From Candidatus Woesearchaeota archaeon (lineage in GTDB: Archaea; Nanobdellota; Nanobdellia; Woesearchaeales; 21-14-0-10-32-9): a stretch of 64,000 nt of DNA. Made by a program: the position numbers and the translations under genes. The DNA lies in NCBI GenBank assembly GCA_020854775.1, contig JAHKLZ010000044.1:6415-70414 (forward strand), written 5' to 3'. The notes below the pieces were generated by a model. That model did not search any database. It was not told the DNA's origin and saw nothing but the letters and a program-made list of their open reading frames with translations. Each line of letters opens with the position of its first letter. Position 1 is the first letter of the stretch. Positions 1,913 through 64,000 of the stretch are shown piece by piece.

Positions 1913-3130
1913 ATGGTACAAAACAATTTAAACAATTTCTTCGAAAAATTCCTAAAAAAAGAAAACTTATTTCAAAACAAAAAAGTATTACAATCAACAT
2001 ATATACCAGGAGAAATAACACACAGAGACGAACAAATCAACATAATAGCAAATATACTAGCACCAGCACTAAAAGGAGAAAAACCATCAAACTTATTCAT
2101 TTACGGAAAAACAGGAACAGGAAAAACACTAGTAGCAAAATACGTAGCAGAACAAATGGAGAATATATCAAAAGAAAAAGGACTACCACTACAAATATTT
2201 TATTTAAACTGCAAATTAAAAAAAATAGCAGACACAGAATACAGAATGATAGCGGAACTATCAAGATTCTTCGGAAAAGCAGTACCAACAACAGGACTAC
2301 CAACAGACGAAGTATACAACATATTCTTTCAAGCACTAGACAGCGAAGAAAAAATAATAATAATAATAATGGATGAAATAGACCAACTAGTAAACAAAGC
2401 AGGCGACGAAATAATATACAATTTAACAAGAATAAACTCAGAACTAAAAAAATCACAACTAAGCATAATAGGAATAAGCAACGACTTAATGTTCGCAAAC
2501 AACTTAGACCCAAGAGTAAAATCATCACTATCAGAAGAAGAAATAGTATTCCCACCATACAACGCATTACAAATACAAGACATACTAAGAAGAAGAACAG
2601 AAATAGCATTCAAAGAAGGAACAATAGAAGAAGGAGTAATACAAAAATGCGCAGCATACGCGGCTAGAGAACACGGAGATGCAAGAAGAGCACTAGAACT
2701 ACTAAGAGTAGCAGGAGAACTAGCAGAAAGAAAAGACAAAACCATAGTAAAAATAGAAGATATAGACGCAGCAGAAGATAAAATAGAAAGAGATAGAATA
2801 ACAGACATGGTAAAAAAACACCCAAAACAATTCCAAGCAACACTATACTCAATACTATCACTAGGAACAGACAAAAAATCAGAAATCCTAACAGGAGACG
2901 TATACGAATTATACAAAGAATTATGCAACAAAATAGGACTAAGACCACTAACACAAAGAAGAGTATCAGACATACTAGCAGAATTAGATATGCTAGGAAT
3001 AATAAATAGCAAAGTAATAAGTAAAGGACGCTTCGGAAGAACAAGAGAAATAACACTATCACTACCAAAAACAATAGAGAAAAAAGTATTATTAATATTA
3101 GAAGAAGAATTAGACATAAAAACAAATTAA
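1913..3130 (+). CDS. cdc6: Orc1/Cdc6 replication initiator
   Basis: 405 aa. AAA+ Walker A GKTGTGKT, Walker B IIIIMDEID, and a C-terminal winged-helix region (RRVSDILAELDMLGII). Confidence 0.95.
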   Translation: MVQNNLNNFFEKFLKKENLFQNKKVLQSTYIPGEITHRDEQINIIANILAPALKGEKPSNLFIYGKTGTGKTLVAKYVAEQMENISKEKGLPLQIFYLNCKLKKIADTEYRMIAELSRFFGKAVPTTGLPTDEVYNIFFQALDSEEKIIIIIMDEIDQLVNKAGDEIIYNLTRINSELKKSQLSIIGISNDLMFANNLDPRVKSSLSEEEIVFPPYNALQIQDILRRRTEIAFKEGTIEEGVIQKCAAYAAREHGDARRALELLRVAGELAERKDKTIVKIEDIDAAEDKIERDRITDMVKKHPKQFQATLYSILSLGTDKKSEILTGDVYELYKELCNKIGLRPLTQRRVSDILAELDMLGIINSKVISKGRFGRTREITLSLPKTIEKKVLLILEEELDIKTN

Positions 3131-3160
3131 CCAATTTTTTTATAAAAAACATGATAAAAA

Positions 3161-4666
3161 ATGAAAGAATCAACAATAAATTTTCTAAACGAAAAACAAA
3201 TACTAGTAAGCCCAGACATATTAGATAAAAATTATGATGAAGAATTCATAAAAAAAATAATAGAAACAAAAAAACCAGAATTCTTAGATGAAGAAACAAT
3301 ACAAAAATACATAGAAGAAAACAAAAATAAAAACAATACAAAAGTAAACATAATAAAATCATATGATAAAGAACCAAAAAAAAGAACATTCCAAGACTTC
3401 GTATCAGTATTCAACAACAGATTCAAAAAATTATCAGAATTACTAAAAAACAGAAAAGAACTAGATAGCACAACATCAATATCAAGATTAAACACAAAAA
3501 ACCAAAATGATAAAACAGCAATAATAGGAATGATTCTAGATAAACAACTAACAAAAAACAACAACATAATATTAACACTAGAAGACACAACAGGAACCTG
3601 CAACGCAATAATAAGAAAAACAGATGATGAAAAAGAAATATATGAAACAGCAGAAAACATAGTTCTAGACGAAGTAATAGGAATAACAGGAACATACCTA
3701 AACAAAGCAATATTCGTAGATAAAATAATATTTCCAGATATACCACTCAATAAAGAATTAAAAAAACAAAAAGAAGAAGAATACGCAATAATGATAGGCG
3801 ACACACATTTCGGATCAAACCACTTCATGAAAGAAGATTTTGAAAGATTCATAAAATGGATAAATCAAGAACTAGGAAACGAAGAACAAAAAAAAATAGC
3901 ATCAAAAGTAAAATACGCAATACTAACAGGAGACATAGTAGAAGGAGTAGGAATATACCCTAATCAAGAAAAAGATTTAGATATACTAAACATAGTAGAA
4001 CAATACGAAGAAGCAGCACGTTGGTTAAAAAAAATACCAGAACACATACAAATAATAACACAATCAGGAAATCACGACGCAGGAAGATTATCAGAACCAC
4101 AAGAAGCACCATTTAAAGACATGGCAAAACCATTATGGGACTTACCAAACATAACACTAGTATCAAATCCAGCATACGTAAACATAGGAAAAACAGAAAC
4201 ATTTCCAGGATTTGATTTATTATTATACCATGGAGGATCACTCATATATTACGCAGATAACATACCAAAAATAAGAGCGGCAGGAGGACAAAAAAAATCA
4301 GATCAAATAATGAAACACTTATTACAAAAAAGACACCTAGCACCAACACATAAATCAACACTATACTTACCAGACGCAGAAGAAGACTTTTTACTAATAG
4401 ATATAGTTCCCGATTTCTTCATAACAGGACACATTCACAGATCAAACATATCAAGCTACAGAAACATAACAATAATAAACGCTTCATGCTGGACAGAAAC
4501 AACAGAAGACCAAATAAAAAGAGGACTAGAACCACTACCAGCAAGAATACCAATAGTGAACTTGAAAACAAGAGATGTAAAAATAATAAATTTTTTATCA
4601 AAAAAATCAAAAGAAAAAGAAAAAGAAGTAACAAAAGAAGTAGAAGAACTAAAAAAATTAAACTAA
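3161..4666 (+). CDS. polB: DNA polymerase D (Pol II) small subunit DP1
   Basis: 501 aa. Calcineurin-like phosphoesterase motifs GDTHFGS, LTGDIVEG, GNHD, GHIH. Its stop lies 1 nt before the polC ATG. Confidence 0.9.
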   Translation: MKESTINFLNEKQILVSPDILDKNYDEEFIKKIIETKKPEFLDEETIQKYIEENKNKNNTKVNIIKSYDKEPKKRTFQDFVSVFNNRFKKLSELLKNRKELDSTTSISRLNTKNQNDKTAIIGMILDKQLTKNNNIILTLEDTTGTCNAIIRKTDDEKEIYETAENIVLDEVIGITGTYLNKAIFVDKIIFPDIPLNKELKKQKEEEYAIMIGDTHFGSNHFMKEDFERFIKWINQELGNEEQKKIASKVKYAILTGDIVEGVGIYPNQEKDLDILNIVEQYEEAARWLKKIPEHIQIITQSGNHDAGRLSEPQEAPFKDMAKPLWDLPNITLVSNPAYVNIGKTETFPGFDLLLYHGGSLIYYADNIPKIRAAGGQKKSDQIMKHLLQKRHLAPTHKSTLYLPDAEEDFLLIDIVPDFFITGHIHRSNISSYRNITIINASCWTETTEDQIKRGLEPLPARIPIVNLKTRDVKIINFLSKKSKEKEKEVTKEVEELKKLN

Positions 4667-4667
4667 A

Positions 4668-8189: not shown

Positions 8190-9869
8190 CTAAACAATTC
8201 TTTCCTCAATAATTTTACTAACCAAATCAATATTTAACTCAAACAAAGAAACACCATGCTCCAAATCATAATACCTAAGAACATCAAGAGAAACCTCACC
8301 TATAAAACCAACACATAACCACTTATCATTATGCTTAACCTTTACTTCAGCACTCCTACCACTAATAAAAAAATTAAAAGACTTAGCCTCAAATTTCAAA
8401 TCCAAATCAAATAAAGAACCCAACAACTCCAAACGTTGCTTAGCCCAAGTATAACTAGCACTATCAGAACAAATCGCAACACACAAATCATTATTTTCCT
8501 CAACAACACCCTTAACTTTTCTAAAAACCCTACCAACCTCAAATAATCTCTGAGGATACTCATTCATCTTATTACTTTTAAAAGTCTTCAAAACACTAGG
8601 AACTAAGAATTCACGAAGAGAATCAAACTCAGAAGACGTAGGATTCTTAATACTTAAAACATTATTAAAACCTAAAAATTTTTGATCATCAAATTTAACC
8701 AAAGAATAACTAACAACTTCAACTAAACCATCACCAACAAGAACATCTCTAACTTTATCCTGAACCTTTTCTTTAAAAATCTCTTTACCAACAGAAAAAG
8801 AACCACTCATAACACCTTCAACTTTATCAAAACCATAAGCAATACAAACATCTTCAACGACATCAACAGGATGAATAACATCAGCCCTATAACAAGGAAC
8901 CAAAACATCAACAAACTTACCAGACTTATTCTTAATACCAAAACCCATCTTTTCAACCAAACCAATAAGAACATCATCTTTAAGATCCAAACCAAGATAT
9001 TTCCTAAGATAATCAAACTCAACCCTTAAAACATCAGGACTAAAATCAGGAGTAACCCTAACAACACCCTCTTTTTTATAATTAATATTAACCTCAAAAA
9101 TATCCCCCCCCATATCAGCAAGAGCACAACCAATAATGTTCAAAGCCTTACTAACAACACCAAAATCATGACCAGAACACTCAACAAAAACATGCCTAGT
9201 ATCAACACCGACAGTACCAGTATTCCTAGAATTAAGAATAGGAGGAACACTCATAACACTATCATTAGAATCAGTAAATAAAGGAAAAACTTTTTCATCC
9301 CTTAATAAATGAGCATACTCCTTACCAGCCTTAGTACTCTTAAGCAAATCAAAACCATTCATCTCCTTAGTCTCACCCAAAGGAACAAACCTAATTTTAT
9401 CAGGACTCAAAGCCTTATAATGAATAGGAAAAACAATATTCTCAAAAGGATAAACACCAATCGCGCACTTCTTCCTGTTTCTACCAAAAGTAACATGAAG
9501 CTTCTCTTGAAGATTAATAATATTATTAAGAACAGACTCATCAATACTAAGATTCTTAGCAACCAAACAAGCAGTAAAAGGCCTAACACCCGAAACAGAT
9601 TTATCCACAACAACCTCAAAATCACTTTTATTCACAACATAAGACTTAAGACCCTTAGAAAAACCAAGAAAAGTCTTCAAAGCCCTAGCAAAACCCTCCT
9701 CAGATAACAAATCAGGCCTATTAGGAAAAATCTCAACAACAATATCTTTCTTATTAACTTCTTCCAAATCAGTACCAAGATAACTAATGTGCTTACTCAA
9801 AGAAACATCATCAACTTTCCTACCAAGAATATTTAATACACGATCCTTACTAAAAACAACACTAGGCAT
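8190..9869 (-). CDS. pheT: phenylalanyl-tRNA synthetase beta subunit (archaeal type)
   Basis: 559 aa. The N-terminal block ...FPNRPDLLSEEGFARAL is typical of archaeal PheRS beta. Lies in an operon with pheS. Confidence 0.85.
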   Translation of the reverse strand: MPSVVFSKDRVLNILGRKVDDVSLSKHISYLGTDLEEVNKKDIVVEIFPNRPDLLSEEGFARALKTFLGFSKGLKSYVVNKSDFEVVVDKSVSGVRPFTACLVAKNLSIDESVLNNIINLQEKLHVTFGRNRKKCAIGVYPFENIVFPIHYKALSPDKIRFVPLGETKEMNGFDLLKSTKAGKEYAHLLRDEKVFPLFTDSNDSVMSVPPILNSRNTGTVGVDTRHVFVECSGHDFGVVSKALNIIGCALADMGGDIFEVNINYKKEGVVRVTPDFSPDVLRVEFDYLRKYLGLDLKDDVLIGLVEKMGFGIKNKSGKFVDVLVPCYRADVIHPVDVVEDVCIAYGFDKVEGVMSGSFSVGKEIFKEKVQDKVRDVLVGDGLVEVVSYSLVKFDDQKFLGFNNVLSIKNPTSSEFDSLREFLVPSVLKTFKSNKMNEYPQRLFEVGRVFRKVKGVVEENNDLCVAICSDSASYTWAKQRLELLGSLFDLDLKFEAKSFNFFISGRSAEVKVKHNDKWLCVGFIGEVSLDVLRYYDLEHGVSLFELNIDLVSKIIEERIV

Positions 9870-10625
9870 TTACTCAAACACCCTCTTCTTAGATTTTTTA
9901 ACATTCTTCTTAACAACTCTACCAGAAGACTTTTTCTTTAAAGTTTTCTTAGCATCCTTAATAATAATTTTCCAATCCTGCTTCTCCTCCCTAGACAACA
10001 AATCCTTATCAAGCTCAGACAAATGCTTACCTTTATCTTCAGCTTTTTTAACCAAATCAAAAATCTTCTTAACAGCTTCCTTAGGAGTAACAGCACCATA
10101 AACAAATTCAGTCTTACGCTCATCAAAATACTTATCAGAAATCTCCTCAGCCATACCCCCACTAGTCGTAAGAGCAACAATAGGTTTACTCATCATATAA
10201 CCATAAGTAGCCTCATTAAGAGTACCTGCACCACCCTGAACAATGATAGCACCATCACAACTATTCAAATTAATACTATTACGACTCCAACCAATACCAG
10301 TAGCAACAACGATATCAGCATAATTATTAACCTTACTCATACTCTCCCAAGGAACAATAGCCAATGTAACCCCTCCTTCTTTCTTAGCACCCTTAAGAGC
10401 AGCCTCCATAACACCCAAACCACCACCAGTTAAAGTAACAGCCTTACGCTTAGCAATCTCCTGACCAACCTCAAAAGCCATATTATAACCCCTAACAGAA
10501 CAAATAACCTCACTAGAACCAAGAACCGCGATTTGCAAAGGACGCTTAGACTTCTTCACAACACTATTAATGTACTTAACCTTATCATAATCCATACTTT
10601 TTTCAACTTTAACTTTCTTCATCAT
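9870..10625 (-). CDS. LOG/TIGR00725-like Rossmann protein (SLOG superfamily) with Lys-rich C-terminal tail
   Basis: Motifs TGGGLGVMEAALKGA and QGGAGTLNE match the LOG family GGGxGxM and PGGxGTxxE. The last ~60 aa are K-rich. Its stop abuts the pheT start codon (9869/9870). Confidence 0.7.
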   Translation of the reverse strand: MMKKVKVEKSMDYDKVKYINSVVKKSKRPLQIAVLGSSEVICSVRGYNMAFEVGQEIAKRKAVTLTGGGLGVMEAALKGAKKEGGVTLAIVPWESMSKVNNYADIVVATGIGWSRNSINLNSCDGAIIVQGGAGTLNEATYGYMMSKPIVALTTSGGMAEEISDKYFDERKTEFVYGAVTPKEAVKKIFDLVKKAEDKGKHLSELDKDLLSREEKQDWKIIIKDAKKTLKKKSSGRVVKKNVKKSKKRVFE

Positions 10626-10634
10626 CTCACCTTC

Positions 10635-12149
10635 TTACTTAATAAAAACCTTAATTTTTTTCAAATACTCCAAATCATTTTTATAAATATCACGAATATC
10701 AGTAATATCATAATATTTAGAAATAATACGCTCCATACCAAGACCCCAAGCAAGAACAGGACACTCAAAACCAAGCAAAGTCTTAGTAACTTCAGGTCTC
10801 ATAATACCAGCACCACCCATCTCAACCCACTGCTTCTTAACAGGATTATACGCATCAACCTCAGCACTAGGCTCAGTATAAGGAAAATGAGCAGGTCTAA
10901 TCCTAACATCAGAAAAACCCATCTTCTTAAAAAACTCTTTCAAATAACCCTTAAGCTTAGGCAAATCACCATCAGGATCAACAACAATACCCTCAACCTG
11001 ATAAAACTCAAATAAATGTTTCCAATCCAAAGCCTCATTCCTAAAATTCTTACCAATAACAAAAAACTTCTTAGGCAAATCCTCCTTCTTCAATTCAGAA
11101 AATTTAATTGCGCTCAACACAGTAGTATGAGTCCTAAGAACCAAATCTTCAGAAACATCCTTAGAAAAAGAACCACCCCAACCCTTACTACCAGTATCAC
11201 CACCACTGACATGAACACTTTTAACCTTATCAAAAAAAACCTTACTCACAGAACGCTTACCATCAAGATAAAAAGTATCTTGCATCTCCCTAGCAGGATG
11301 ATCCTGAGGAACAAACAAAGCATCCAAATTCCAAAACGCGTTCTGAACCTGATCACCATCCATTTCCTCAAAACCAAGTTCTAACCAAATGCTCTTAATA
11401 TAATATCTAGCCTCATTAACGAAGTGCTTCCTACCAACACTAACACTAGGAACATCACCACTAACATCGTATTTCTTAAAAGAATAATCCTTTCCACTTT
11501 TAATGACACTAGAAGTAACTTTTTCCTCAAAATTTTGATCAAACTTATCAGACTCACAAACCTTTTTACCTTCCTCAGTTACACTAGCAAACCACTCACT
11601 CTTCTTATCCTTAACAATAACATCTTTACGTTTTAAAAGATTATTAACAAGAACAACTTCTTGCTTACTCAAAGAATCCTCATTCAAAGGCAATTTCTTC
11701 AACAAATCTTCTTCTAAAAAACCAGATTTAAGCTTATTAACACCAATATTAGTAATAGAAAAATACAAAACATCCTTTTTATCAATAGAAATAAAACCAT
11801 CCTTCTTTAACAACCCAGTACAAGCATTAATTTCTTCCCTAGAAATAACCTTACTTAAATCACCAATACTAACCTCGTCCTTATCAACCAAAGTCTTAAG
11901 AAATAAATGCTCAGGCAAACCCTTAGAAACATAAATCAAACCATTTTTACCAAGAACTAAAACATTAACATCTTTCTTCTCCAAAACAACCAAATCCTTA
12001 TTAGACAACCATTGCAAACTACGCATAACAACAATTTCCTTTAAACCAGTATTCTCAACAATATCTAACAAAGAAGATTTCTTCTTAACAAAACGCAAAA
12101 CCTTCTTCTCAGAAGCACTAAGACCCTCTATAACTTCGCTAAAATTCAT
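10635..12149 (-). CDS. pheS: phenylalanyl-tRNA synthetase alpha subunit
   Basis: 504 aa. Class II motifs FRNEALDWKHLFEFYQVEG, GGAGIMRPEV, WGLGMERI. N-terminal winged-helix repeats. Confidence 0.9.
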   Translation of the reverse strand: MNFSEVIEGLSASEKKVLRFVKKKSSLLDIVENTGLKEIVVMRSLQWLSNKDLVVLEKKDVNVLVLGKNGLIYVSKGLPEHLFLKTLVDKDEVSIGDLSKVISREEINACTGLLKKDGFISIDKKDVLYFSITNIGVNKLKSGFLEEDLLKKLPLNEDSLSKQEVVLVNNLLKRKDVIVKDKKSEWFASVTEEGKKVCESDKFDQNFEEKVTSSVIKSGKDYSFKKYDVSGDVPSVSVGRKHFVNEARYYIKSIWLELGFEEMDGDQVQNAFWNLDALFVPQDHPAREMQDTFYLDGKRSVSKVFFDKVKSVHVSGGDTGSKGWGGSFSKDVSEDLVLRTHTTVLSAIKFSELKKEDLPKKFFVIGKNFRNEALDWKHLFEFYQVEGIVVDPDGDLPKLKGYLKEFFKKMGFSDVRIRPAHFPYTEPSAEVDAYNPVKKQWVEMGGAGIMRPEVTKTLLGFECPVLAWGLGMERIISKYYDITDIRDIYKNDLEYLKKIKVFIK

Positions 12150-12198
12150 AACCCATCAAACCATCAATAATTAAAAAAAAATAAAAAAGAAAAAAAAA

Positions 12199-13011
12199 TT
12201 ATTTTTTAATTTTTATTTCCTTCATGCCCTTCCAAGCAATCTCGAACAAATTATCAATAGTCGCAGAGAAAAAAGGAGAATTAATCCAAATACCTAAATC
12301 ATACGTAGGATGAATCTCCTTATCATCCATAATCATAAAAATAATTTCACGACCATCAACAACGATGAAACGAGCATTAGCATCAGTATGTCTAACCTCG
12401 GCAACGCCCTTAAGCTCCAGAGCAGCATTCTCAGTTTCCTTATTCATACTAGTAGCAATCCTAATAGAAACACCTCGCTTCTTAAGTTGTTCAAAAACAG
12501 GCTTAAGACCCTCAACTTTCCTAAGAAAACCTTGAGACGTAGTCATAATAGAAACGGAACTCTCAGCATTCCTAATAGTCATATCGATATGATTATACAA
12601 ATTATGTCTTCCTTTCAAAGAAGCAGATAAATCAGCAGGCTCCACTAATTCCACGCCTTGAGTATGCAAAGAATTAAGTTCATCAACTAAATCAGTATTC
12701 TTAGATTCATCTAATAACTTAATGTGCTGATCAGCTTCAGATTTAATATTTTTTTTAACACGCTCTAAAACTTCTTTAGGAGGAACAGCAATATACTTAA
12801 TAGGCTTACCAATCTTCATAACCACGAAACCCTTCTTTTCAAGAGTTTCAAGAACATCATAACTCCTACTTCTAGGAACATTCGCAATATCAGACAACTC
12901 ACCAGCAGTACTAACACCACGAGAAAGAAGAGCAGTCCAAATCTTTACTTCATACAAATTAAGCGAAAAATACCGTCTTAGTTTATTTAAAAATTCATCT
13001 TTTACTATCAT
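12199..13011 (-). CDS. TrmB-family transcriptional regulator (paralog 1)
   Basis: N-terminal wHTH YEVKIWTALLSRGVSTAGELSDIANVPRSRSYDVLETLEKKGFV plus the TrmB C-terminal domain. The ORF is open to 13035 (TTG). The ATG at 13011 sits 9 nt after AGGGGGT and aligns with the paralog start, so it is preferred. Confidence 0.8.
   Translation of the reverse strand: MIVKDEFLNKLRRYFSLNLYEVKIWTALLSRGVSTAGELSDIANVPRSRSYDVLETLEKKGFVVMKIGKPIKYIAVPPKEVLERVKKNIKSEADQHIKLLDESKNTDLVDELNSLHTQGVELVEPADLSASLKGRHNLYNHIDMTIRNAESSVSIMTTSQGFLRKVEGLKPVFEQLKKRGVSIRIATSMNKETENAALELKGVAEVRHTDANARFIVVDGREIIFMIMDDKEIHPTYDLGIWINSPFFSATIDNLFEIAWKGMKEIKIKK
12777..12810. repeat. 34-nt exact DNA repeat shared with TrmB paralog 2 (copy at 60897-60930)
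   Basis: taggaggaacagcaatatacttaataggcttacc occurs at both loci. A second 23-nt exact match lies at 12908-12930 and 61028-61050, at the same offset of 48120 nt. Confidence 0.9.
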
Positions 13012-13231
13012 TTTCATCATACCCCCTAGGGACAAGCCCCCCTCTTTTTATAACATATAATTCACTACTACTTTATATAATTTTGTTTTTTTTTACTATT
13101 CACTAATCGTGCTTCTGTGTTGATTACTACACAGTGTCGTTTTTTTGTAATTTATAATAAGTGGTGTTTTTCCTTAAAATAAATAAAAAACCTTAGTAAG
13201 TTTTATTTACTAAAACGTATTTGTACAAATA

Positions 13232-46185: not shown

Positions 46186-46196
46186 AGGGATTAGTA

Positions 46197-47362: not shown

Positions 47363-47371
47363 GGTTAAAAA

Positions 47372-48073: not shown

Positions 48074-48084
48074 GAGTGTAAAAC

Positions 48085-48465: not shown

Positions 48466-48475
48466 AGGTCATAAC

Positions 48476-50078: not shown

Positions 50079-50082
50079 GTAA

Positions 50083-50388: not shown

Positions 50389-50389
50389 A

Positions 50390-50635: not shown

Positions 50636-50636
50636 A

Positions 50637-50912: not shown

Positions 50913-50918
50913 TTAATA

Positions 50919-51320: not shown

Positions 51321-51330
51321 GGAAAAAAAA

Positions 51331-51726: not shown

Positions 51727-51728
51727 AA

Positions 51729-52424
51729 ATGGTTAAGAATCACATGAAAAGAATCACAGCTCCAAGAACATGGAACGTAGAAAGAAAAACAACTAAATTC
51801 ATAACTAAACCACTACCTGGAGCGCACAAATTAGAACAATCAGTAGCGATTAACACTTTCATGAAAGAACTAACAAAAATAACAAACACAACAAAAGAAA
51901 CAAAATACGTATTAACAAACGACGAAGTTCTGATAAACGGAAAGAGAAAAAGAGATTTCAAAAAACCAGTAGGATTTTTAGACATAATAACAATAAAATC
52001 AACAAATAAAAATTACGTACTAACAATAGATCATAAAGGCGCACTAAAACCAAAAGAAATAAACGAAAAACAAGCAACACAAAGACTACTAAAAATAAAT
52101 GGAAAAACAATACTAGGAAAAGACAAAGTACAACTAAACACGGTGAATGGAGAAAACTTAATAATTAAAGAAAAAGAATCTAAAAATTACAAAGTAGGAG
52201 ATACACTAATAGTAGAAGTATCAACTCTGAAAATATTAGATCATATCCCTTTAAAAGAAAAAGCACTAATATTAGTATATACAGGAAAACATTCAAGCAA
52301 AACAGGAACAATACAAGAAATAAACACAACGACAGTCACAATAAAATCAGATAAAGAAACATTCGAAACAAGCAAAAAATACGTAATCGCAATAAACAAA
52401 GAAAAAATAGCAGAGTATGAATAA
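51729..52424 (+). CDS. rps4e: 30S ribosomal protein eS4
   Basis: 231 aa. The N-terminal HMKRITAPRTW block. Confidence 0.95.
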   Translation: MVKNHMKRITAPRTWNVERKTTKFITKPLPGAHKLEQSVAINTFMKELTKITNTTKETKYVLTNDEVLINGKRKRDFKKPVGFLDIITIKSTNKNYVLTIDHKGALKPKEINEKQATQRLLKINGKTILGKDKVQLNTVNGENLIIKEKESKNYKVGDTLIVEVSTLKILDHIPLKEKALILVYTGKHSSKTGTIQEINTTTVTIKSDKETFETSKKYVIAINKEKIAEYE

Positions 52425-52426
52425 AA

Positions 52427-52942
52427 ATGAACGTCATGAAAAAAATCAAAATAGAGAAAGTCACCCTGAACATAGGAGCAGGAAAAGACCAAAAAGTACT
52501 AGATAAAGCAATAAAGCTCTTAGAAAATATCACAGGAATAAAACCAATAAAAACAACAACAAACAAAAGAATACAATCATGGGGATTAAGACCAGGATTA
52601 CCAATAGGATGCAAAATTACTCTAAGAGGAGAAGAAGCCAAAAAAATGGTTGAAAGAATAATATACGCTAAAGACAACAACTTACAAGAATCATACTTCG
52701 ATGAAGAAGGAAATATAAGCTTCGGAATAAAAGAATACGTAGACATAAAAGACGCAAAATACGACCCAAGCATAGGAATGATGGGATTACAAGCAACAAT
52801 AACATTATCAAGACCAGGATTCAGAGTAAAAACAAGAAGAATAAGACCATCAACACTACCTCCGAATCACAGAATAACAAAAGAAGAAGCAATACAATTC
52901 ATGAAAGACAATTATTCAGTTAAAACAGGTGACGAATTATGA
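52427..52942 (+). CDS. rpl5: 50S ribosomal protein uL5
   Basis: 171 aa. Conserved position and KVTLNIG..G block. Confidence 0.95.
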
Positions 52943-53169
52943 CGACTTCAAATCATACAAAAATGTTGAAACAAATAAGTAATAAGCCTGGAAAAATGGC
53001 TAAATACAATAAATACAACGTATCAAAAAAAAGAGAACAAGGAGAATCAACAAAGAAATGTAAATTATGCGGAAGAACAGGTGGACACATATCCAAATAC
53101 GGATTAAACTTGTGCAGACACTGCTTCAGAGATTACGCAACAGATTTAGGATTTAAAAAATACTCATAA
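52939..53169 (+). CDS. rps14: 30S ribosomal protein uS14 (zinc type)
   Basis: C-terminal [39 protein letters not shown] overlap start at 52939. An alternative ATG at 52996 would give the usual ~57 aa. Confidence 0.9.
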
Positions 53170-53196
53170 AAAAAAACAATAAAGGTGTAAGAAAAA

Positions 53197-53589
53197 ATGT
53201 CATTAAACGATCCATTAGCAAACGTATTGTCCTACATAAACAATTATGAAAAATTAGGAAAAAAAGAAGTTATAACAAAAAATAACTCCAAAGTAATAAG
53301 ACAAGTATTAGAAGTAATGCAAAACGAAGGACTAATAGGTTCATATGAACAAATAGAAGACGGAAAAGGAAAAATCCTAAAAATATACTTAATAGGATCA
53401 CTAAACAAGTGCGGAGTAATAAAACCAAGACACAAAGTAAAAGTAACAGACTACGAAAAATTCGAAAAAAGCTTTTTACCAGCAATGAATTTCGGAGTAT
53501 TAATAGTATCAACAAACAAAGGAATAATGTCAAATAAAGAAGCAAAAGAACAAAACCTAGGAGGAACGTTACTAAGCTTCGCATACTAA
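53197..53589 (+). CDS. rps8: 30S ribosomal protein uS8
   Basis: 130 aa. N-terminal DPLANVLSYINN block. AAAGGTG Shine-Dalgarno upstream. Confidence 0.95.
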   Translation: MSLNDPLANVLSYINNYEKLGKKEVITKNNSKVIRQVLEVMQNEGLIGSYEQIEDGKGKILKIYLIGSLNKCGVIKPRHKVKVTDYEKFEKSFLPAMNFGVLIVSTNKGIMSNKEAKEQNLGGTLLSFAY

Positions 53590-53599
53590 AGGTAAGAAA

Positions 53600-54148
53600 A
53601 TGAAACAAGAAATACTAACAGACACAATGAAAATACCAGAAGGATGCACCTTCACACACAACAAAAAAGAAATGATAATTAGAGGACCAAAAGGAGAAAT
53701 AACAAGAAAACTACCTGATAAAAAAATAATCCTAGAAACAAAAAATGACGAATTAATACTAACGTACAAAAATGCATCAAAAAGAGAAAAAAGAATGATA
53801 TTCACAACTCGTTCACACCTTAGAAACATGTTCAAAGGAGTACAAGAAGGATTCATATACAAATTAAAAATATGCTCAGGACACTTCCCAATGAACGTGT
53901 CACTAAAAAACAACGTGTTAGAAATAAAAAACTTCATAGGAGAAAAAGTACCAAGAACACTAACAATTAAACAAGGAGCAGACGTAAAAATAAACGGAGA
54001 CGAAATAATAGTAGAATCAATAAACAAAGAAATAGCAGGACAAACAGCGGGCTCAATAGAAAAATTAACAAAAAGACCAGGATTCGACAAAAGAATATTC
54101 CAAGACGGAATATACATAACCGAAAAAGACGGTAAAAAACTAAGCTAA
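53600..54148 (+). CDS. rpl6: 50S ribosomal protein uL6
   Basis: 182 aa. Conserved position. Two-domain uL6 pattern. Confidence 0.95.
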   Translation: MKQEILTDTMKIPEGCTFTHNKKEMIIRGPKGEITRKLPDKKIILETKNDELILTYKNASKREKRMIFTTRSHLRNMFKGVQEGFIYKLKICSGHFPMNVSLKNNVLEIKNFIGEKVPRTLTIKQGADVKINGDEIIVESINKEIAGQTAGSIEKLTKRPGFDKRIFQDGIYITEKDGKKLS

Positions 54149-54159
54149 AAGTGATAATC

Positions 54160-54702
54160 ATGAAAAAATTCATCAGAAAAGACACAAACAAGAAAAAAAG
54201 AATAACAGGAACAGGTTGGAGAAAACCAAAAGGAATAACCAACAAGATGAGACTGAACAGAAAAGGACACAGAATAACTGTCAGACCAGGATACGGAACT
54301 CCTAATCAAGAAAAAAACAAAATCCAAGGATTAGAAATAATAACAATAACTAACATACAAGAACTAGAAAATGTTAATCCTAAAACACAATGCATAGTAA
54401 TAGGAAGAACAGGAAAACAAAAAAAATTAGACCTAATAAAAAAAGCAGAAGAACAAAAAATAACAATCATCAATTTAAAAGTTGACAAATTCAAAGAAGC
54501 AACAGAAAAATACTTCGCAGAAAGAAAAAAAGCATCAAAACAAAGAGTTGAAGAACAAAAAAAGAAAGAAGCAGAAGAACAAAAAAAGAAAGAAGACAAA
54601 AAAGAAGACAAAAAAGATGATAAACAAGAAGAAATAAGCGAAGAAGAAAAACAAAAACAAGAAAAAAAAGAAAAAGACAAAATACTCACCAAAAACAAAT
54701 AA
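54160..54702 (+). CDS. rpl32e: 50S ribosomal protein eL32 with K/E-rich C-terminal extension
   Basis: The core is ...WRKPKGITNKMR..KGH. The tail is KKASKQRVEEQKKKEAEEQKKKEDKKEDKKDDKQEE... The ORF track starts at GTG 54151. The ATG at 54160 after GTGAT is preferred. Confidence 0.9.
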   Translation: MKKFIRKDTNKKKRITGTGWRKPKGITNKMRLNRKGHRITVRPGYGTPNQEKNKIQGLEIITITNIQELENVNPKTQCIVIGRTGKQKKLDLIKKAEEQKITIINLKVDKFKEATEKYFAERKKASKQRVEEQKKKEAEEQKKKEDKKEDKKDDKQEEISEEEKQKQEKKEKDKILTKNK

Positions 54703-54715
54703 AGGTTAAAGAAAA

Positions 54716-55249
54716 ATGAAAATACAAAAAAGATTAGCATCACAAGTCCTTGACGTATCACAAAAAAGAGTAAAATTTGATACTCAAAGACTAGCAGACA
54801 TAAAAGAAGCAATCACCAAGACAGACATAAGACAATTAGTCTCAGAAAAAGCAATAACTAAAGTCCAAGAAAAAGGAGTATCAAGAGGAAGAGCAAGAAA
54901 AATAAAAACCCAAAAATCCAAAGGACTAAGAAAAGGACCAGGATCAAGACAAGGAAAATCAACAGCTAGATTACCAAGAAAAGAATCATGGATGAATAAA
55001 ATAAGAAGTCAAAGAAAATTCCTAACAGAACTAAAAGAAAAACAACTAATATCACTAAAAACATACAGAAACATATACATGAAATGCAAAGGAGGCTTTT
55101 TTAGAAGCACAAGACATATCAAATTGTATTTAGAAGAACACAAATTGTTTCAAAAAAAAGAAACGAAACAAACAGATAATAAAACAGAAAAAGAAACAAA
55201 GACAGTAAAAAAAACAACTAAGAAAACAACAAATAAAACCAAGAAGTGA
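54716..55249 (+). CDS. rpl19e: 50S ribosomal protein eL19 with K/T-rich tail
   Basis: The N-terminal block is QKRLASQVLDVSQKRVKFD. The tail is ..KTEKETKTVKKTTKKTTNKTKK. Confidence 0.95.
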   Translation: MKIQKRLASQVLDVSQKRVKFDTQRLADIKEAITKTDIRQLVSEKAITKVQEKGVSRGRARKIKTQKSKGLRKGPGSRQGKSTARLPRKESWMNKIRSQRKFLTELKEKQLISLKTYRNIYMKCKGGFFRSTRHIKLYLEEHKLFQKKETKQTDNKTEKETKTVKKTTKKTTNKTKK

Positions 55250-55255
55250 TGATTT

Positions 55256-55771
55256 ATGAGTTCAACAACGAAATACACAGTTAAATACAGAAGAAAAAGA
55301 GAAGGTAGAACAAACTACAAAAAAAGATTAAACCTACTCAAAGGAAAAACAGACAGATTAATATTAAGAAAAACAAACACAAAAATAATATTACAAATAG
55401 TAAGATATGAATCCGAAGGAGATAAAGTACTAATAACAACTAACTCCTCAGAACTAAGAAAACACGGATGGAAACACTCTTGCAAAAACGTACCAGCAGC
55501 TTACTTAGCAGGATTAATATTAGCTAAAAAAGCAAAAGAGAAAAAAATCAAAAAAGCAATCCTAGATTTAGGATTAGAAACTCCACTAAAAGGATCAAGA
55601 CTATTCTCCGCATTAAAAGGAGTTACAGAAGGAGGATTAGAAATACCAGTTAACGAAGAAATATATCCAAACGAAGAAAGATTAAAAGGAGAACACATCG
55701 CATCATACTTAGAAAAACACAAAACAATAACACAAGACTTTGAGAAAATCAAAGAAAAAATCAAAGAGTGA
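55256..55771 (+). CDS. rpl18: 50S ribosomal protein uL18
   Basis: 171 aa. RRKREGRTNYKKR block. Confidence 0.95.
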   Translation: MSSTTKYTVKYRRKREGRTNYKKRLNLLKGKTDRLILRKTNTKIILQIVRYESEGDKVLITTNSSELRKHGWKHSCKNVPAAYLAGLILAKKAKEKKIKKAILDLGLETPLKGSRLFSALKGVTEGGLEIPVNEEIYPNEERLKGEHIASYLEKHKTITQDFEKIKEKIKE

Positions 55772-55776
55772 TAATC

Positions 55777-56583
55777 ATGCCAGAACAAAAATCAAAGAAA
55801 AAAACAATAAATAAAAAACAAGAAAGAGAAGAAGACTTACCATTACTAGAACCTGTCAACGAGGAACAAACCAAAATAGAAGTCATACCTCCAACAGAAT
55901 GGACACCAAAAACAGAACTAGGAAAAAAAGTACAAACAGGACAAATCACAAGTATGGATGAAATACTAGAATCAGGACAAGCAATAATGGAACCAGAAAT
56001 AGTAGATTCATTACTACAACTAGAATCAGAATTATTACTCATAGGACAAGCCAAAGGAAAATTCGGAGGCGGACAAAGAAGAATATTCAGGCAAACACAG
56101 AAAAAAACAAGAGAAGGAAACAAACCAAAATTTACAACATTAGCAGTAATAGGAAACAAAAACGGATACGTAGGAATAGGAATAGGAAAAAGCAAAGAAA
56201 CAGTACCAGCAAGAGAAAAAGCAATAAAAAACGCTAAATTAAACGTATTCAAAATCGCAAGAGGAAGCGGAAGCTGGGAATCAGACTCCAAAGAACCAAA
56301 TTCAATACCATTCGCAGTAACAGGAAAATGCGGAAGCGTAGAACTAACACTAATGCCAGCACCAAAAGGAAAAGGACTATGTGTAGAAAAAGAATGCGCA
56401 AAAATATTAGCATTAGCAGGAATACAAGATGTATGGTCAAAATCATTCGGGCAAACAAAGAATAAAATAAATATGATAACAGCGTGTGAAAAAGCACTAA
56501 AAGAATTAACAAAAATGAAAACAAGACCACACGACATAGAAGCACTATCAATGATAAAAGGATCAAAGGTGACTGAACAATGA
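55777..56583 (+). CDS. rps5: 30S ribosomal protein uS5
   Basis: Has the uS5 dsRBD and C-domain (..VIGNKNGYVGIGIGKSKE..AI.NAK). The ATG at 55777 after GTGAT is preferred over GTG 55768. Confidence 0.95.
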   Translation: MPEQKSKKKTINKKQEREEDLPLLEPVNEEQTKIEVIPPTEWTPKTELGKKVQTGQITSMDEILESGQAIMEPEIVDSLLQLESELLLIGQAKGKFGGGQRRIFRQTQKKTREGNKPKFTTLAVIGNKNGYVGIGIGKSKETVPAREKAIKNAKLNVFKIARGSGSWESDSKEPNSIPFAVTGKCGSVELTLMPAPKGKGLCVEKECAKILALAGIQDVWSKSFGQTKNKINMITACEKALKELTKMKTRPHDIEALSMIKGSKVTEQ

Positions 56584-56948
56584 GTAACGAAAAAAAAGAA
56601 AAAATAGCAGTCATCCTAGTAAGAGGATTAGTAGAATTAAGACAAGAAATAAAAGACACGCTAAGAATGTTAAACTTACAAAAAAAGAACGCGTGCGTAA
56701 TCTTAGAAGACAACCCAGTTAACAAAGGAATGCTAAAAAAAGTAGAAAACTACGTAACGTATGGAACAGTAACAGAAGAAACATTAAAATTACTAAAAGA
56801 AAAAAGACCAACAGCAAAAAAATTCTACTCATTACACCCACCAAGAGGCGGATTCGAAAGAAAAGGAATAAAAAAACCATTCCATTTGAAAGGCGCACTA
56901 GGAAACAGAAAAGAAAAAATGAATGATTTAATCAAAAAAATGTTATAA
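56580..56948 (+). CDS. rpl30: 50S ribosomal protein uL30
   Basis: 122 aa. IAVILVRGLVELRQEIKDTLRMLNL block. Confidence 0.95.
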   Translation: MSNEKKEKIAVILVRGLVELRQEIKDTLRMLNLQKKNACVILEDNPVNKGMLKKVENYVTYGTVTEETLKLLKEKRPTAKKFYSLHPPRGGFERKGIKKPFHLKGALGNRKEKMNDLIKKML

Positions 56949-56959
56949 AGGTTATAAAG

Positions 56960-57409
56960 ATGACACATAATAAAAGAAAAAAAAACAGTAGACAACGCGG
57001 AGAATGGACCCACGGATGGGGCGCTAAGAAAAAACACAGAGGCGCAGGACACAGAGGAGGAAGAGGAAACGCAGGCTCCGGAAAAAGAGGAGACGCAAAA
57101 AAACCTAGCTACTGGAAAGACGAAAAATACTTCGGAAAAAACGGATTCGTATCAATAAATAAAATAGAAATAAAAGCAATAGGAATATCACACCTAGACT
57201 CAATAATTGATACGCTAATAAAAACAGGAAAAGCCACAATTAATCAAGACACAATATCAATAAACTTAAAAGACATAAAATACCAAAAACTACTAGGAAC
57301 AGGAAACACACAAAGAAAACTAGAAATAACAACGGAAATGGCATCACCAAAAGCAATAGAAAAAATACAAAAAGCAGGCGGAAACATAAACCTGCCAAAA
57401 CAAGAATAA
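56960..57409 (+). CDS. rpl15: 50S ribosomal protein uL15
   Basis: 149 aa. G/R-rich N-terminus (HRGAGHRGGRGNAGSGKRG). Confidence 0.95.
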   Translation: MTHNKRKKNSRQRGEWTHGWGAKKKHRGAGHRGGRGNAGSGKRGDAKKPSYWKDEKYFGKNGFVSINKIEIKAIGISHLDSIIDTLIKTGKATINQDTISINLKDIKYQKLLGTGNTQRKLEITTEMASPKAIEKIQKAGGNINLPKQE

Positions 57410-57419
57410 GTGCAAAAAA

Positions 57420-58754
57420 ATGGGCGTCCTAGACACAATACTAAGTTACATACCAGAAGTAAAACCGCCAACACAAAAAAAACTATCATTCAACGCAAAA
57501 CTTAAATGGACAGGAATTGTACTAGCGTTATACTTCTTACTAGGACTCATACCACTATACGGATTAGAAGCAAATGCACTCGAACAATTCGAATTCTTAA
57601 GCACAGTACTAGGAGCAAGCTTCGGAAGCCTAATAACACTAGGTATAGGACCAATAGTAACAGCATCCATCATTCTACAACTACTAAAAGGAGCAGGAAT
57701 AATAAACATAGACTTAACAAAACAAGACGGAAAAAGAAAATTCCAAGGAATACAAAAACTATTAGCAATAATTTTTGTAGTAGTAGAAGCATTTATATTC
57801 GTATTTTTAGGAGGACTAACAGCACAAGCAGGAATAAGCCCACTAATACTAGTAGGACAAATAACACTAGGAGGACTATTCATAATACTAATGGATGAAA
57901 TAGTAAGCAAATACGGATTCGGATCAGGTGTCAGCTTATTCATCGCAGCAGGAGTCAGCCAACAAATATTCATACAACTATTCAGCCCATACCCATTCGA
58001 TAATCCCGCAGGAATGATACCAATAATATTCATCACTTTGTTCAATCCACAAACATCACTAGATGCACTGTATTTCCCAGTCGCAAGAGTAATCGCGACG
58101 CTAACAGTATTCTTTTTCGTAGTATATGTACAATCAATGAAAGTAGAAATACCACTAAGCTTCGGAAAAGTATCAGGACACGGAGTAAGATGGCCACTAA
58201 ACTTTCTATACGCAAACGTATTACCAATAATATTAGTATCCGCGTTGCTAGCAAACATGCAAATACTTGCCAACTTACTAGAAAGTAGAGGACAACAAGC
58301 ATTAGCAGGAATAGTAGCATGGACCACCGCGCCACCATTCTTAGAATCATTAATAGCAAGCAACATGACTTGGTTAATAATAGCACAATCACTAACATAC
58401 ATACTCGTTTACGTAATAGGAGCAACAATATTCAGCGTTTTCTGGGTACAAACATCAGGACTAGACGCGGCGAGCCAAGCAAAACAAATGGTTAGTTCAG
58501 GACTACAAATACCAGGATTTAGAAGAGACCCACGCGTATTAGAAAGATTACTAAAAAGATACATAGGACCACTAACGATCATGGGAGGAATAGCCATAGG
58601 ACTACTAGCAAGCGTAGCGGATCTAACACAAGCAATAGGGAGCGGAACAGGGATACTATTAGCAGTCATGATAATATACAAATTATACGAAGACATCGCG
58701 AAACAACACTTATACGACATGAACCCAACGATGAGAAAATTCATATCATTCTAA
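57420..58754 (+). CDS. secY: preprotein translocase subunit SecY
   Basis: 444 aa, 10 TM. Conserved position after rpl15. Confidence 0.95.
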   Translation: MGVLDTILSYIPEVKPPTQKKLSFNAKLKWTGIVLALYFLLGLIPLYGLEANALEQFEFLSTVLGASFGSLITLGIGPIVTASIILQLLKGAGIINIDLTKQDGKRKFQGIQKLLAIIFVVVEAFIFVFLGGLTAQAGISPLILVGQITLGGLFIILMDEIVSKYGFGSGVSLFIAAGVSQQIFIQLFSPYPFDNPAGMIPIIFITLFNPQTSLDALYFPVARVIATLTVFFFVVYVQSMKVEIPLSFGKVSGHGVRWPLNFLYANVLPIILVSALLANMQILANLLESRGQQALAGIVAWTTAPPFLESLIASNMTWLIIAQSLTYILVYVIGATIFSVFWVQTSGLDAASQAKQMVSSGLQIPGFRRDPRVLERLLKRYIGPLTIMGGIAIGLLASVADLTQAIGSGTGILLAVMIIYKLYEDIAKQHLYDMNPTMRKFISF

Positions 58755-62452: not shown

Positions 62453-62474
62453 AAAAAAACAGAAAAGATTAACC

Positions 62475-62484
62475 ATTTATAAAT
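62475..62484 (-). promoter_or_regulatory. TATA box of the eL34-eL14 unit (leaderless)
   Basis: The minus strand reads ATTTATAAAT, ending 22 nt upstream of the ATG at 62452. Confidence 0.55.
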
Positions 62485-62673
62485 CTTATTCAAAAAAATA
62501 ACCAAAAAAAACAAAGAATAATAAAACATAACAAAACAACAAAAAAATAAAAGAAAACACTTATAAATAAACTTGCTTTTTCTCCTCTAATAACAAACAC
62601 ATTTTTTAATCATTTAAAAAATAAACAAAAATACTCTGAAAAACAACAAAAAATAACCAAAAAAGGTGCGCCG

Positions 62674-64000
62674 ATGACCCAAAACGAAAAAAATCACGAA
62701 AACAATGAAGAAAAACCAATCGCAGACAAAATAATAAACCAAGTCATAGAAGACGAAATGAAAAACGCGTACCTAGATTATTCTATGTCAGTAATAGTAG
62801 GAAGAGCACTACCAGACGTAAGAGACGGACTAAAACCAGTACACAGAAGAATACTATACGCAATGAACGACTTAGGAATAAAATGGAATTCACCATACAA
62901 AAAATGCGCAAGAATCGTAGGGGAAACCCTAGGTAAATACCACCCACACGGAGACAGCGCAGTATACGATTCACTAGTAAGAATGGCACAACCATTCTCA
63001 CTAAGATACATGCTAATACAAGGACAAGGAAACTTCGGATCAGTAGACGGAGACAGCGCAGCAGCCATGCGTTACACAGAAGCAAGAATGGCAAAAATAT
63101 CAGAAGAACTACTACAAGACATAGACAAAGAAACAGTGAAATTCGTAGAAAACTTCGACGGAAGCCTAACAGAACCAAACGTACTACCAAGCAAAATACC
63201 AAACCTACTAATAAACGGAAGCACAGGAATCGCGGTAGGAATGGCAACTAACATACCACCTCATAACCTAAAAGAAACATGCTCAGCAGTAATCGCACTA
63301 ATAGACAATCCAGACATCACAACACAAGAAATATTAGAACACGTTCAAGGACCAGACTTCCCAACAGGAGGAATAATACAAGGCAGAAACGGATACTTGC
63401 AAGCAGCAACAACAGGAAGAGGAAAAGTAACAACGAAAGCAAGAATCCAAGAAGAAGAAACCAAAAAAAACGCACGACTAGTAATAACAGAAATACCATA
63501 CATGGTAAATAAATCAAACTTAATAATACAAATCGCGGACTTAGTAAAAGAAAAAATAATAGAAGGAATATCAGATTTAAGAGATGAATCAGACAGAAAA
63601 GGAATGCGCATAGTAATAGAACTAAAAAAAGACGCAAACATAGAAGTAATAAAAAACTTATTATACAAACACTCAAGATTACAAGAAACATTCGGAATAA
63701 TATTCCTAGCACTAATAAATAACCAACCAAGAATATTCACACTAAAAGGATTATTAGAAGAATTTGTCAGTCACAGAAAAGAAGTAGTAACTCTAAGAAC
63801 AAAATATGACTTAAAAAAAGCAGAAGATAAAGCACACGTCCTAGAAGGATTACTAATAGCTCTGAATAACATAGACGAAGCAATAGAAATAGTAAAAAAT
63901 TCATCATCAGCATCAGACGCAAAACAATCACTAATAACAAGATTTGAATTAACAGAAATACAAAGCCAAGCAATACTGGACATGAAATTACAAAAAATTG
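62674..64000 (+). CDS. gyrA: DNA gyrase subunit A, N-terminal part (3' end outside window)
   Basis: Open frame from the ATG at 62674 (AGGTG 5 nt upstream) to the window end. [55 protein letters not shown] and [10 protein letters not shown] (catalytic Tyr) blocks. Not in the ORF track because it has no stop in the window. Confidence 0.95.

Follow-up and report, generated by a model that had tools for sequence, protein, structure and literature searches.

Strand-fixed base composition and two near-complementary codon dialects around a candidate replication origin of an uncultured woesearchaeal archaeon

Introduction

The original papers on Borrelia burgdorferi and Treponema pallidum reportedly described codon usage that depends on the strand carrying a gene. 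Strand-specific codon and amino-acid usage is documented in further bacteria with strong skew, for example Blochmannia, Ehrlichia, Chlamydia and Lawsonia (PMC2099444, PMC2671203, PMC2089121). In a survey of 352 bacterial chromosomes, skew at four-fold degenerate codon sites reached its maximum of 0.446 in Blochmannia and measured 0.378 in B. burgdorferi (PMC2099444, Table 6), and SkewDB gives a typical GC skew of about 2.5% (PMC8941118). Here we describe an archaeal case. The window that we analysed, meaning the whole stretch of 64,000 nt at positions 6415-70414 of the 111,766-bp metagenomic contig ENA ERZ27252308 k141_240921, belongs to an uncultured Woesearchaeota (DPANN) archaeon and forms the origin-proximal part of its chromosome. 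From position 1913 to position 64000 of this window, the + strand is rich in A and C at synonymous sites under genes of either orientation.

Other described systems share parts of this pattern. In the candidate phyla radiation (CPR) order UBA1400 (Microgenomates Ch65, Collierbacteria and Beckwithbacteria), the genomes show a G/C disparity of single polarity, for which unidirectional replication has been proposed; the codon and protein consequences of the disparity were not analysed there (PMC7143001). In Pseudoalteromonas chromids, single-polarity skew is a signature of unidirectional replication that was verified by coverage, and a prediction over 16,103 large bacterial replicons assigned 77 of them to this mode (PMC7858055). 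The asymmetry between the heavy and light strands of animal mitochondrial DNA (mtDNA) affects the mitochondrial proteins (PMC4182315, PMC10730292, PMC2779903). For archaea, a 2026 analysis found chromosomes largely without strand-specific mutational skews, and it describes a Haloferax origin at which the GC skew at third positions has inverted polarity (PMC12999951). Forterrea, the one DPANN genome discussed for skew, is reported to show a normal peaked pattern (PMC7111523), and our full-text literature searches returned no earlier report of such skew in Woesearchaeota or DPANN.

Results

The skew belongs to the DNA strand

The + strand of the whole window has the composition A 0.460, T 0.217, C 0.188 and G 0.134 (AT skew +0.36, GC skew -0.17). 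At four-fold degenerate sites this strand carries A 0.81-0.88, T 0.03-0.08, C.06 and G.03-.04 under + and - genes alike, which amounts to about 84% A at freely evolving codon sites irrespective of gene orientation. Read on the sense strand, the same sites are A.812, T.083, C.063 and G.042 in + genes (n=4347) and T.878, A.034, G.061 and C.027 in - genes (n=2247). The analysis covered contig positions 1-78,538 of the 111,766 (the genome is not closed), and the strand-fixed composition extends at least to position 78,538, which is 8.1 kb past the window.

The original prediction, made from hand counts of five 60-nt lines, held that the excess of A over T follows the DNA strand and not the sense strand. 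All five counts proved exact on recount. We expressed the third-position skews (AT3 and GC3) on the + strand for the 57 genes of at least 450 nt in the 70 kb to the right of the candidate origin described below. The + genes have a mean AT3 of +0.76 (sd 0.10) and a GC3 of -0.53, and the - genes have an AT3 of +0.69 (sd 0.17) and a GC3 of -0.76. A change of sign with gene orientation, which the prediction had named as the mark of a transcription or coding effect, occurs in none of the 57 genes, and the excess of A over T indeed follows the strand.

When the position 3 skew is split, the strand component is AT +0.73 and GC -0.65, and the coding or transcription component is AT +0.04 and GC +0.13. 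The strand component keeps the same sign at position 1 (AT +0.11, GC -0.08) and at position 2 (AT +0.06, GC -0.11). The skew is thus strongest at the least constrained sites, with an AT strand component of 0.73, 0.11 and 0.06 at positions 3, 1 and 2, and of 0.81-0.93 at four-fold sites. Intergenic skew is weaker (0.32), as has likewise been reported for bacteria (PMC2099444). The mRNAs of - genes are pyrimidine-rich at third positions, and ribosomal-protein genes are no different in third-position skew from other + genes. The skew is bound to the strand and is greatest where constraint is least. Over the 70 kb, AT3 stays level with increasing distance from the origin (slope -0.001 per 10 kb, p=0.88). 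Between contig positions 8,000 and 78,500 the GC3 skew declines by about 0.034 per 10 kb (p=0.003), a trend that is confounded with gene content and may reflect it (the ribosomal cluster) rather than position. Polymorphisms between strains were set aside as a source for the mutation spectrum; a single divergent strain contig offers 62 differences with no outgroup, and its A/C:G/T pairs, 10:0 at third and intergenic sites, are too few and are confounded by composition.

At four-fold sites the strand component is about 0.87 for A/T and about 0.29 for C/G, or about 0.92 combined. To our knowledge, only animal mitochondria show skew values comparable to this. The combined value is roughly twice that of the strongest surveyed bacterial chromosome and far above the 0.378 of Borrelia burgdorferi, in line with the earlier expectation of a magnitude well beyond Borrelia, on a measure that is similar but not identical (PMC2099444).

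Two codon dialects

We curated 75 genes and removed spurious antisense open reading frames (ORFs). Codons ending in A or C make up 0.73-0.94 of the total in 52 of 52 + genes and 0.02-0.34 in 21 of 21 - genes, two disjoint ranges. Relative synonymous codon usage in the two gene sets is correlated at r = -0.27 when compared directly, and at r = +0.94 when each codon NNx of the + genes is matched with the codon NN-complement(x) of the - genes. The two near-complementary codon dialects that had been proposed are therefore real. For example, ATA supplies 88% of Ile codons in + genes and ATT supplies 90% in - genes. Pro is encoded by CCA in 355 of 456 cases in + genes and by CCT in 195 of 201 cases in - genes; Gly is encoded by GGA versus GGT, and Arg by AGA versus AGG or CGT.

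In archaea, UNN anticodons read NNA codons and GNN anticodons read NNU and NNC codons. The two gene sets would therefore draw on largely different tRNA isoacceptors, and a single tRNA pool serving two dialects is a reasonable inference. The window carries tRNA genes that serve each dialect. The tRNA-Pro(GGG) gene (33755..33828, + strand) reads CCU and CCC, the Pro codons of the minus dialect, and the tRNA-Ser(UGA) gene (41609..41693, + strand) reads UCA, a codon of the plus dialect. The tRNA-Leu(UAG) gene (38859..38982, - strand) contains an intron of about 43 nt, encodes its CCA end and reads CUA, also a plus-dialect codon; this gene was detected by Rfam and missed by ARAGORN. ATA codons in archaea require the agmatidine-modified tRNA-Ile2, and a share of 88% ATA among the Ile codons of + genes predicts unusual tRNA abundances.

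The dialects also leave a mark on gene prediction. Among the ORFs of at least 90 aa, 81 of 151 are not genes, and 73 of these 81 are antisense to genes, a pattern that can mislead gene callers. Random sequence of the same skewed composition is expected to yield about 10 non-gene ORFs, versus 3.5 in strand-symmetric sequence of the same G+C, and some antisense frames carry only one stop per 46-58 codons. The original prediction had ascribed these shadow ORFs to the skew. The direction of that effect is right (about 10 versus 3.5), but the skew is insufficient, and most of the effect comes from codon periodicity acting together with the dialects. The shadow ORFs excluded as genes include 24761-25186, 33211-33633, 44647-44832, 50537-50902, 61215-61616 and 62783-63983.

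Proteins follow the strand

Amino-acid usage differs between the gene sets. With ribosomal proteins left out of the + set, V makes up 4.3% of residues in + genes and 9.6% in - genes, T 6.4% and 3.5%, Q 3.9% and 2.1%, I 10.4% and 6.9%, D 4.6% and 6.9%, and S 5.1% and 7.2%. Overall, the - genes are richer in V, D, S, C, R, F and G, and the + genes in Q, T, I and E (chi-square 416, p = 2e-76). Counts reported earlier for the first 100 residues of PheT (V15, I4) and of a protein called 'polC' (V4, I12) are exact, although the latter label is wrong, as the gene encodes the large subunit DP2 of archaeal DNA polymerase D (PolD) and the organism is an archaeon. The claim that proteome composition depends on strand stands for the V/I split and its companions, which orthologues confirm whatever the function of the gene (see below), but not for K and N, which are not clearly strand-dependent in the bulk comparison. 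That comparison sets different genes against each other on the two strands, and hence we sought orthologues on opposite strands in relatives, whose loci carry L numbers here (L001 is the present contig).

An inversion provides the first set of such orthologues. In relatives with both genes covered, the gene order is cdc6>DP1>DP2><eIF2-beta, and in the closest relatives that cover the upstream side (L145, L147) it is pheT>[origin]cdc6>DP1>DP2><eIF2-beta<metK. Compared with the relatives examined (L145, L147, L013-L029), the module of origin, cdc6, DP1 and DP2 (window 914-8186) is cleanly inverted here, with one breakpoint between eIF2-beta and the AT-rich region and the other within 3 bp between the PolD large-subunit gene and pheT. 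The module comprises, besides the origin region and cdc6, the genes for the PolD small subunit (3161-4666, + strand) and large subunit (4668-8186, + strand). Its genes have an AT3 of +0.74 to +0.87 and an A/C-rich sense strand in this genome. In the closest relatives the same genes are T/G-rich (AT3 of -0.43 to -0.56 in L013; four-fold AT skew of -0.36 to -0.80 in L147), and the collinear flanks of the module have the same polarity here and in L013 and L147. Across 2077 aligned residues of the module proteins, the replacements are strongly directional, with ratios of 37:6 for E/D, 28:5 for I/V, 14:2 for T/S, 8:0 for N/D and 7:1 for Y/F. Replacements in the same-dialect controls MetK, eIF2-beta, TBP and MCM are symmetric.

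The second set comes from a block running from NMD3 to RIO1 (32071..41463, genes on both strands), which includes FttA (35145-37037, - strand), the proteasome beta subunit and ScpA. This block is collinear with L065 and L066, where all of its genes are in the other dialect. Comparing the A/C copy with the T/G copy of each gene gives ratios of 42:8 for I/V, 24:6 for K/R, 14:1 for T/S and 10:2 for N/D. The A/C copy comes from this genome for some genes and the T/G copy for others, and the effect therefore belongs to the strand, not to the lineage. Both base composition and amino-acid bias belong to the strand and not to the gene, and genes re-equilibrate after inversion. These comparisons, which had been suggested as a check, show that the pressure is mutational and that it has a directional effect on protein sequence.

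A candidate origin is crossed without reversal

The 1-kb intergenic region at 914..1912 (G+C about 14-15%) precedes the orc1/cdc6 gene (1913..3130, + strand; Pfam AAA, Cdc6_lid and WHD_Cdc6; AT3 +0.87, GC3 -0.72). The adjacent orc1/cdc6 gene, an origin recognition box (ORB) and an AT-rich stretch make this region a candidate Orc1/Cdc6-type origin, with an unwinding element and ORB boxes. One box is perfect (TTCCATAGGAAATGAAGGGGAGGG, 1762..1785, + strand), and its consensus recurs upstream of cdc6 across the order, for example in L013, L035 and L047. A degenerate, inverted ORB-like box at 1010..1029 (- strand) has 15 of 20 matches to the ORB core, a weak resemblance that we found by eye. The two boxes bracket the AT-rich stretch. 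The ORB consensus used here is a dyad of TTCC..GGAA plus a G-run. On the + strand of the region, T exceeds A and G exceeds C from about 901 to 1400, and A exceeds T and C exceeds G from about 1401 to 1912. This T/A flip was considered as a true polarity switch and then downgraded, as a T-rich stretch lies upstream of cdc6 in relatives of either polarity.

A further pair of perfect ORBs lies just upstream of the TBP gene, 1.7 kb to the left of the window, at 4637-4656(-) and 4723-4742(-) in contig coordinates. This pair is conserved across the order and is also present in L013, L014, L015, L021, L022 and L051. Its role may be that of another Orc1/Cdc6 binding site or another origin, or it may serve to regulate tbp; in this contig it bounds the far side of the zone of weakened skew described next.

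At the gene level, we looked for a reversal of polarity across the cdc6-ORB locus in this contig and found none. To the left of the origin, MCM, TBP and the small gene Lg4784, all on the - strand, have four-fold AT skews of +0.72 to +0.88. A zone of 2-3 kb on one side only is weakened; here, four-fold AT skew falls to +0.40 in metK and 0.00 in eIF2-beta (the 3' part of metK and eIF2-beta occupy 93..913, + strand), compared with about +0.83 elsewhere. On the other side the skew has full strength from the first codons of cdc6. Likewise, no reversal at the origin occurs in seven strongly or moderately skewed relatives in which both flanks are covered (L029, L032, L045, L057, L039, L145 and L147).

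There is, instead, a step. We took (AT3-GC3)/2 over the 1.5 kb before and the 1.5 kb after the origin, with the A/C-rich strand placed on top. The value rises from 0.25 to 0.79 in this contig, from 0.08 to 0.61 in L147, from 0.08 to 0.62 in L145, from 0.39 to 0.67 in L045 and from 0.25 to 0.46 in L057. In L147, cdc6 lies on the low side, and the step therefore follows compositional polarity and not the genes.

Strand-fixed third-position skew is found in many, though not all, of the sampled Woesearchaeota, and close relatives such as L016 and L023 have almost no strand skew; L024 and CP060219.1 likewise count among the unskewed Woesearchaeota. Its flavour varies as well. Some lineages have the A/C type seen here, others mainly an excess of G over C (L039, L033, L055, L056, L060, L046 and L052; GC3 up to +0.77 with little A/T skew), and L102 and L110 have mainly A/T skew at 50% G+C. 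Strand skew is therefore evolutionarily labile and specific to particular lineages, as it is in CPR bacteria.

Discussion

We suggest that the pattern arises from replication-linked, strand-asymmetric mutation pressure on a chromosome that is copied essentially one way, an account to which we give somewhat better than an even chance. Net mutational flow on the + strand runs toward A and, less strongly, toward C, and on the - strand toward T and G. Every gene drifts to the composition of the strand that carries it, giving two mirror-image codon dialects, and the first and second codon positions pass the bias on to proteins (I, T, K, E, N and Q versus V, S, D, R, F and G). After an inversion, a gene re-equilibrates to its new strand. 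The asymmetry would come from replication, with a given strand always leading or always lagging for very long stretches, because replication from the Orc1/Cdc6-ORB origin (near position 1400) would be effectively unidirectional. One fork would copy nearly the whole chromosome and the other would be arrested within about 2-3 kb, which would be the weakened zone. This model would explain why polarity is the same on both sides, why the skew has full strength from the start of cdc6 and why there is one short weakened zone. If the origin assignment is right, the continuously made strand would be A+C-rich, the opposite of the usual bacterial G+T rule. Such a leading strand is suggested by the full strength reached at once on one side and the weak zone on the other, and also by the ribosomal operons and 5S rRNA gene, which would be co-directed with the long fork. 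The inverted skew is reminiscent of that at the Haloferax origin (PMC12999951).

Several points weigh against this account. Lesions in exposed single-stranded DNA (C>U, A>Hx, 8-oxoG) would leave the template of the lagging strand rich in G+T, through C>T and A>G changes, and the fork direction predicted on that basis is therefore opposite to the one given by origin geometry. Both the activity of the origin and the direction of the fork are predictions from sequence, and the T-rich half of the intergenic region may be a structural origin feature and not a local reversal of skew. The analysis spans 78.5 kb of one 111.8-kb contig, and polarity may reverse elsewhere in the genome. Among relatives, L029, L032 and L039 show no step at the origin, L013 shows no dip of skew near cdc6, and both polarity relative to cdc6 and base flavour (A/C versus mainly G) differ among lineages. 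Moreover, polarity truly switches in L028 (CAYNLP010000019.1, 2000-8000), gradually and at a distance of about 6 kb from cdc6. There, third-position skew declines through the PolD large-subunit gene, reaches zero at eIF2-beta and has full opposite strength beyond. Two-armed replication therefore exists in the group.

The main rival accordingly is two-armed bidirectional replication with an unusually strong leading/lagging bias, in which the 78 kb would lie within one arm, the cdc6-ORB locus would be inactive or minor and the reversal would fall outside the sampled sequence. The switch in L028 speaks for it, as does the coverage of part of the genome only. The opposite polarity of blocks in L065 and L066 that are collinear with the window would need nothing beyond a block moved between arms, and origins are dispensable in some archaea (10.1101/2023.11.15.567178). 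Against it, polarity holds across the only recognisable origin, with cdc6, ORB and AT-rich stretch, both here and in seven relatives; the skew steps exactly at this locus, in a direction that tracks polarity in five genomes, which is unexpected if the locus is inert; and 137 loci of relatives, with about 0.32 Mb of strongly skewed sequence, contain the single switch of L028. We therefore regard two-armed replication as rather unlikely, though well worth keeping in view. Less probable still is a strand-specific process other than theta replication, such as rolling-circle or strand-displacement copying in which one strand stays single-stranded for long, as has been suggested for the mitochondria of animals, or else repair or modification that acts on one strand. 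The contrast of A+C and G+T strands, with G rarest on the A-rich strand, and the size of the effect do resemble mitochondrial heavy/light asymmetry (PMC4182315). The step at the origin is sharp, and skew in some bacterial genomes has been read as rolling-circle replication (PMC7111523). However, AT3 lacks the gradient with distance that would recall mitochondria, GC3 has only its weak trend, the genes at this locus include an ordinary set for an archaeal replisome (Orc1/Cdc6, PolD and MCM) and no dedicated rolling-circle gene was seen there.

Two further explanations can be dismissed as the main cause. Selection or transcription, in the form of purine loading of mRNA, translational codon selection or transcription-coupled mutation or repair, might account for the small sense-strand component at position 3 (AT +0.04, GC +0.13) and for the difference of 0.24 in GC3 between + and - genes. 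Yet the main component keeps its DNA-strand sign when orientation flips, the mRNAs of - genes have pyrimidines where purine loading would place purines, ribosomal-protein genes behave like other + genes and inverted genes switch dialect. The strand-fixed sign and the split into components refute such a cause for the bulk of the skew, and we consider it very improbable. An artefact of chimeric or strand-biased assembly, or of miscalled minus-strand genes, has a negligible probability; we found nothing in its support. Independent ENA, JGI and Logan assemblies of the same DNA are 99.2-100% identical, and therefore the skew does not stem from assembly. The minus-strand ORFs are true genes, with Pfam E-values of 1e-16 to 1e-59 for products that include PheRS alpha and beta, Topo VI A and B, FttA, proteasome beta, RIO1, NFACT, NMD3, ScpA and TrmB, and relatives from unrelated studies show the same phenomenon.

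Set beside the systems described above, the asymmetry is of a known kind, a replication-type strand asymmetry with strand-specific codon usage; what is new is its size, the dominance of A/T, the archaeal host and the lack of reversal at the origin. As in Borrelia-type bacteria, synonymous skew is bound to the strand, codon usage falls into two classes by strand and amino acids follow. Unlike in those bacteria, the skew is about twice as strong, A/T dominates over G/C, the host is an archaeon and polarity does not reverse at a recognisable origin; in addition, the leading strand would depart from the bacterial G+T rule by being A+C-rich, provided that the cdc6-ORB origin is active. The CPR order UBA1400 offers a parallel in that its members are ultra-small and uncultured, one strand is distinct along the entire sequence without a reversal of polarity and the trait is lineage-specific within a larger clade. 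Its closed bacterial genomes, however, are uneven in G and C alone (C 29.8%, G 15.0%, with A and T nearly equal; PMC7143001), whereas A/T disparity dominates in the present unclosed genome (A 46%, T 22%). With Pseudoalteromonas chromids it shares one polarity of skew across an origin, here over 78.5 kb, although chromids are bacterial secondary replicons that derive from plasmids and have modest skew, and this is a main archaeal chromosome known from sequence only. Animal mtDNA comes closest in size. There too, an A+C-rich strand is paired with a G+T-rich one, the effect is largest at four-fold sites, inversions re-equilibrate and amino-acid composition is affected. In contrast to mtDNA, this is a cellular chromosome with an Orc1/Cdc6-PolD-MCM replisome, without a clear gradient from the origin (for AT3, a mitochondria-like gradient is unsupported), and with many genes on each strand, so that two dialects coexist in one translation system.

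We know of no experimental work on replication in DPANN archaea, and a single-polarity chromosome with a step at its origin bears on how they replicate. A broader statement can be made only tentatively, and we place it below an even chance: a clade of Woesearchaeota would copy its main chromosome essentially one way from the Orc1/Cdc6 origin, the second fork stopping after a few kb, and would have an A+C-rich continuous strand, an asymmetry stronger than any that we found reported for a cellular chromosome, and two dialects translated in one cell with largely separate isoacceptors. The skew itself contradicts the 2026 generalisation about archaeal chromosomes (PMC12999951). It also offers a natural experiment on how mutation pressure shapes proteins, with the same families pushed in opposite directions within one cell and, after inversions, between relatives, as exemplified by I versus V, E versus D, T versus S and K versus R. 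Strand-dependent amino-acid composition of this kind can distort DPANN phylogenomics.

Other features of the contig

The host assignment is based on gene content and similarity. Metagenome-assembled genomes of Woesearchaeota (DPANN) give the best matches in the GTDB species collection, with identities of up to 76% for the PolD large subunit and 88-89% for FttA. The gene set is archaeal, with Orc1/Cdc6, PolD, PheRS, Topo VI, FttA, proteasome beta, the L3-L15-SecY cluster, L14e and L34e, and the region also contains a stand-alone 5S rRNA gene and an intron-containing tRNA gene. Genes in the minus, T/G-ending dialect include pheT, a SLOG-domain gene, pheS and trmB (8190..13035, - strand), NUDIX/wHTH, NFACT and GT2 genes (21496..24105, - strand), and the genes for ribosomal protein S2, Topo VI A and Topo VI B (25880..29414, - strand). 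The archaeal ribosomal-protein cluster from L3 to L15, with secY (45187..58754, + strand), is in the plus dialect, with an AT3 of 0.5-0.9.

Some genes are unusual in type or arrangement. The S-adenosylmethionine synthetase (window 1-482; contig 5766-6896) is of the bacterial/eukaryotic type (PF00438, PF02772, PF02773) and not of the archaeal type. DNA gyrase subunit A (881 aa) runs off the window, its 5' part occupying 62674..64000 (+ strand), where the minus-strand ORFs at 62783-63983 are antisense shadows; the gene co-occurs with those for Topo VI A and B (26624-29414, - strand). A SLOG/LDcluster4-domain gene (9870-10625, - strand) lies between pheS and pheT, an arrangement that is kept in L145-L148.

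Two TrmB-family paralogues (12199-13035 and 60325-61128, both on the - strand) share a stretch that is about 80% identical. In the divergent strain contig mentioned above, L010 (SRR10872584), the region with the second paralogue is linked to sequence from downstream of the first, which reflects either recombination between paralogues or an assembly chimera. The left end of the contig (positions 1-1400) carries small genes, one with a weak Peptidase_S74 match, and its strand skew is nil or reversed. This end is probably recently acquired or mobile DNA, because several independent assemblies stop there. Finally, the PolD large-subunit gene is uninterrupted in the window, whereas in L047, L048, L050, L052, L054, L056, L057 and L060-L062 it matches in two to three pieces that lie 0.5-1.5 kb apart, and these interruptions are probably inteins.

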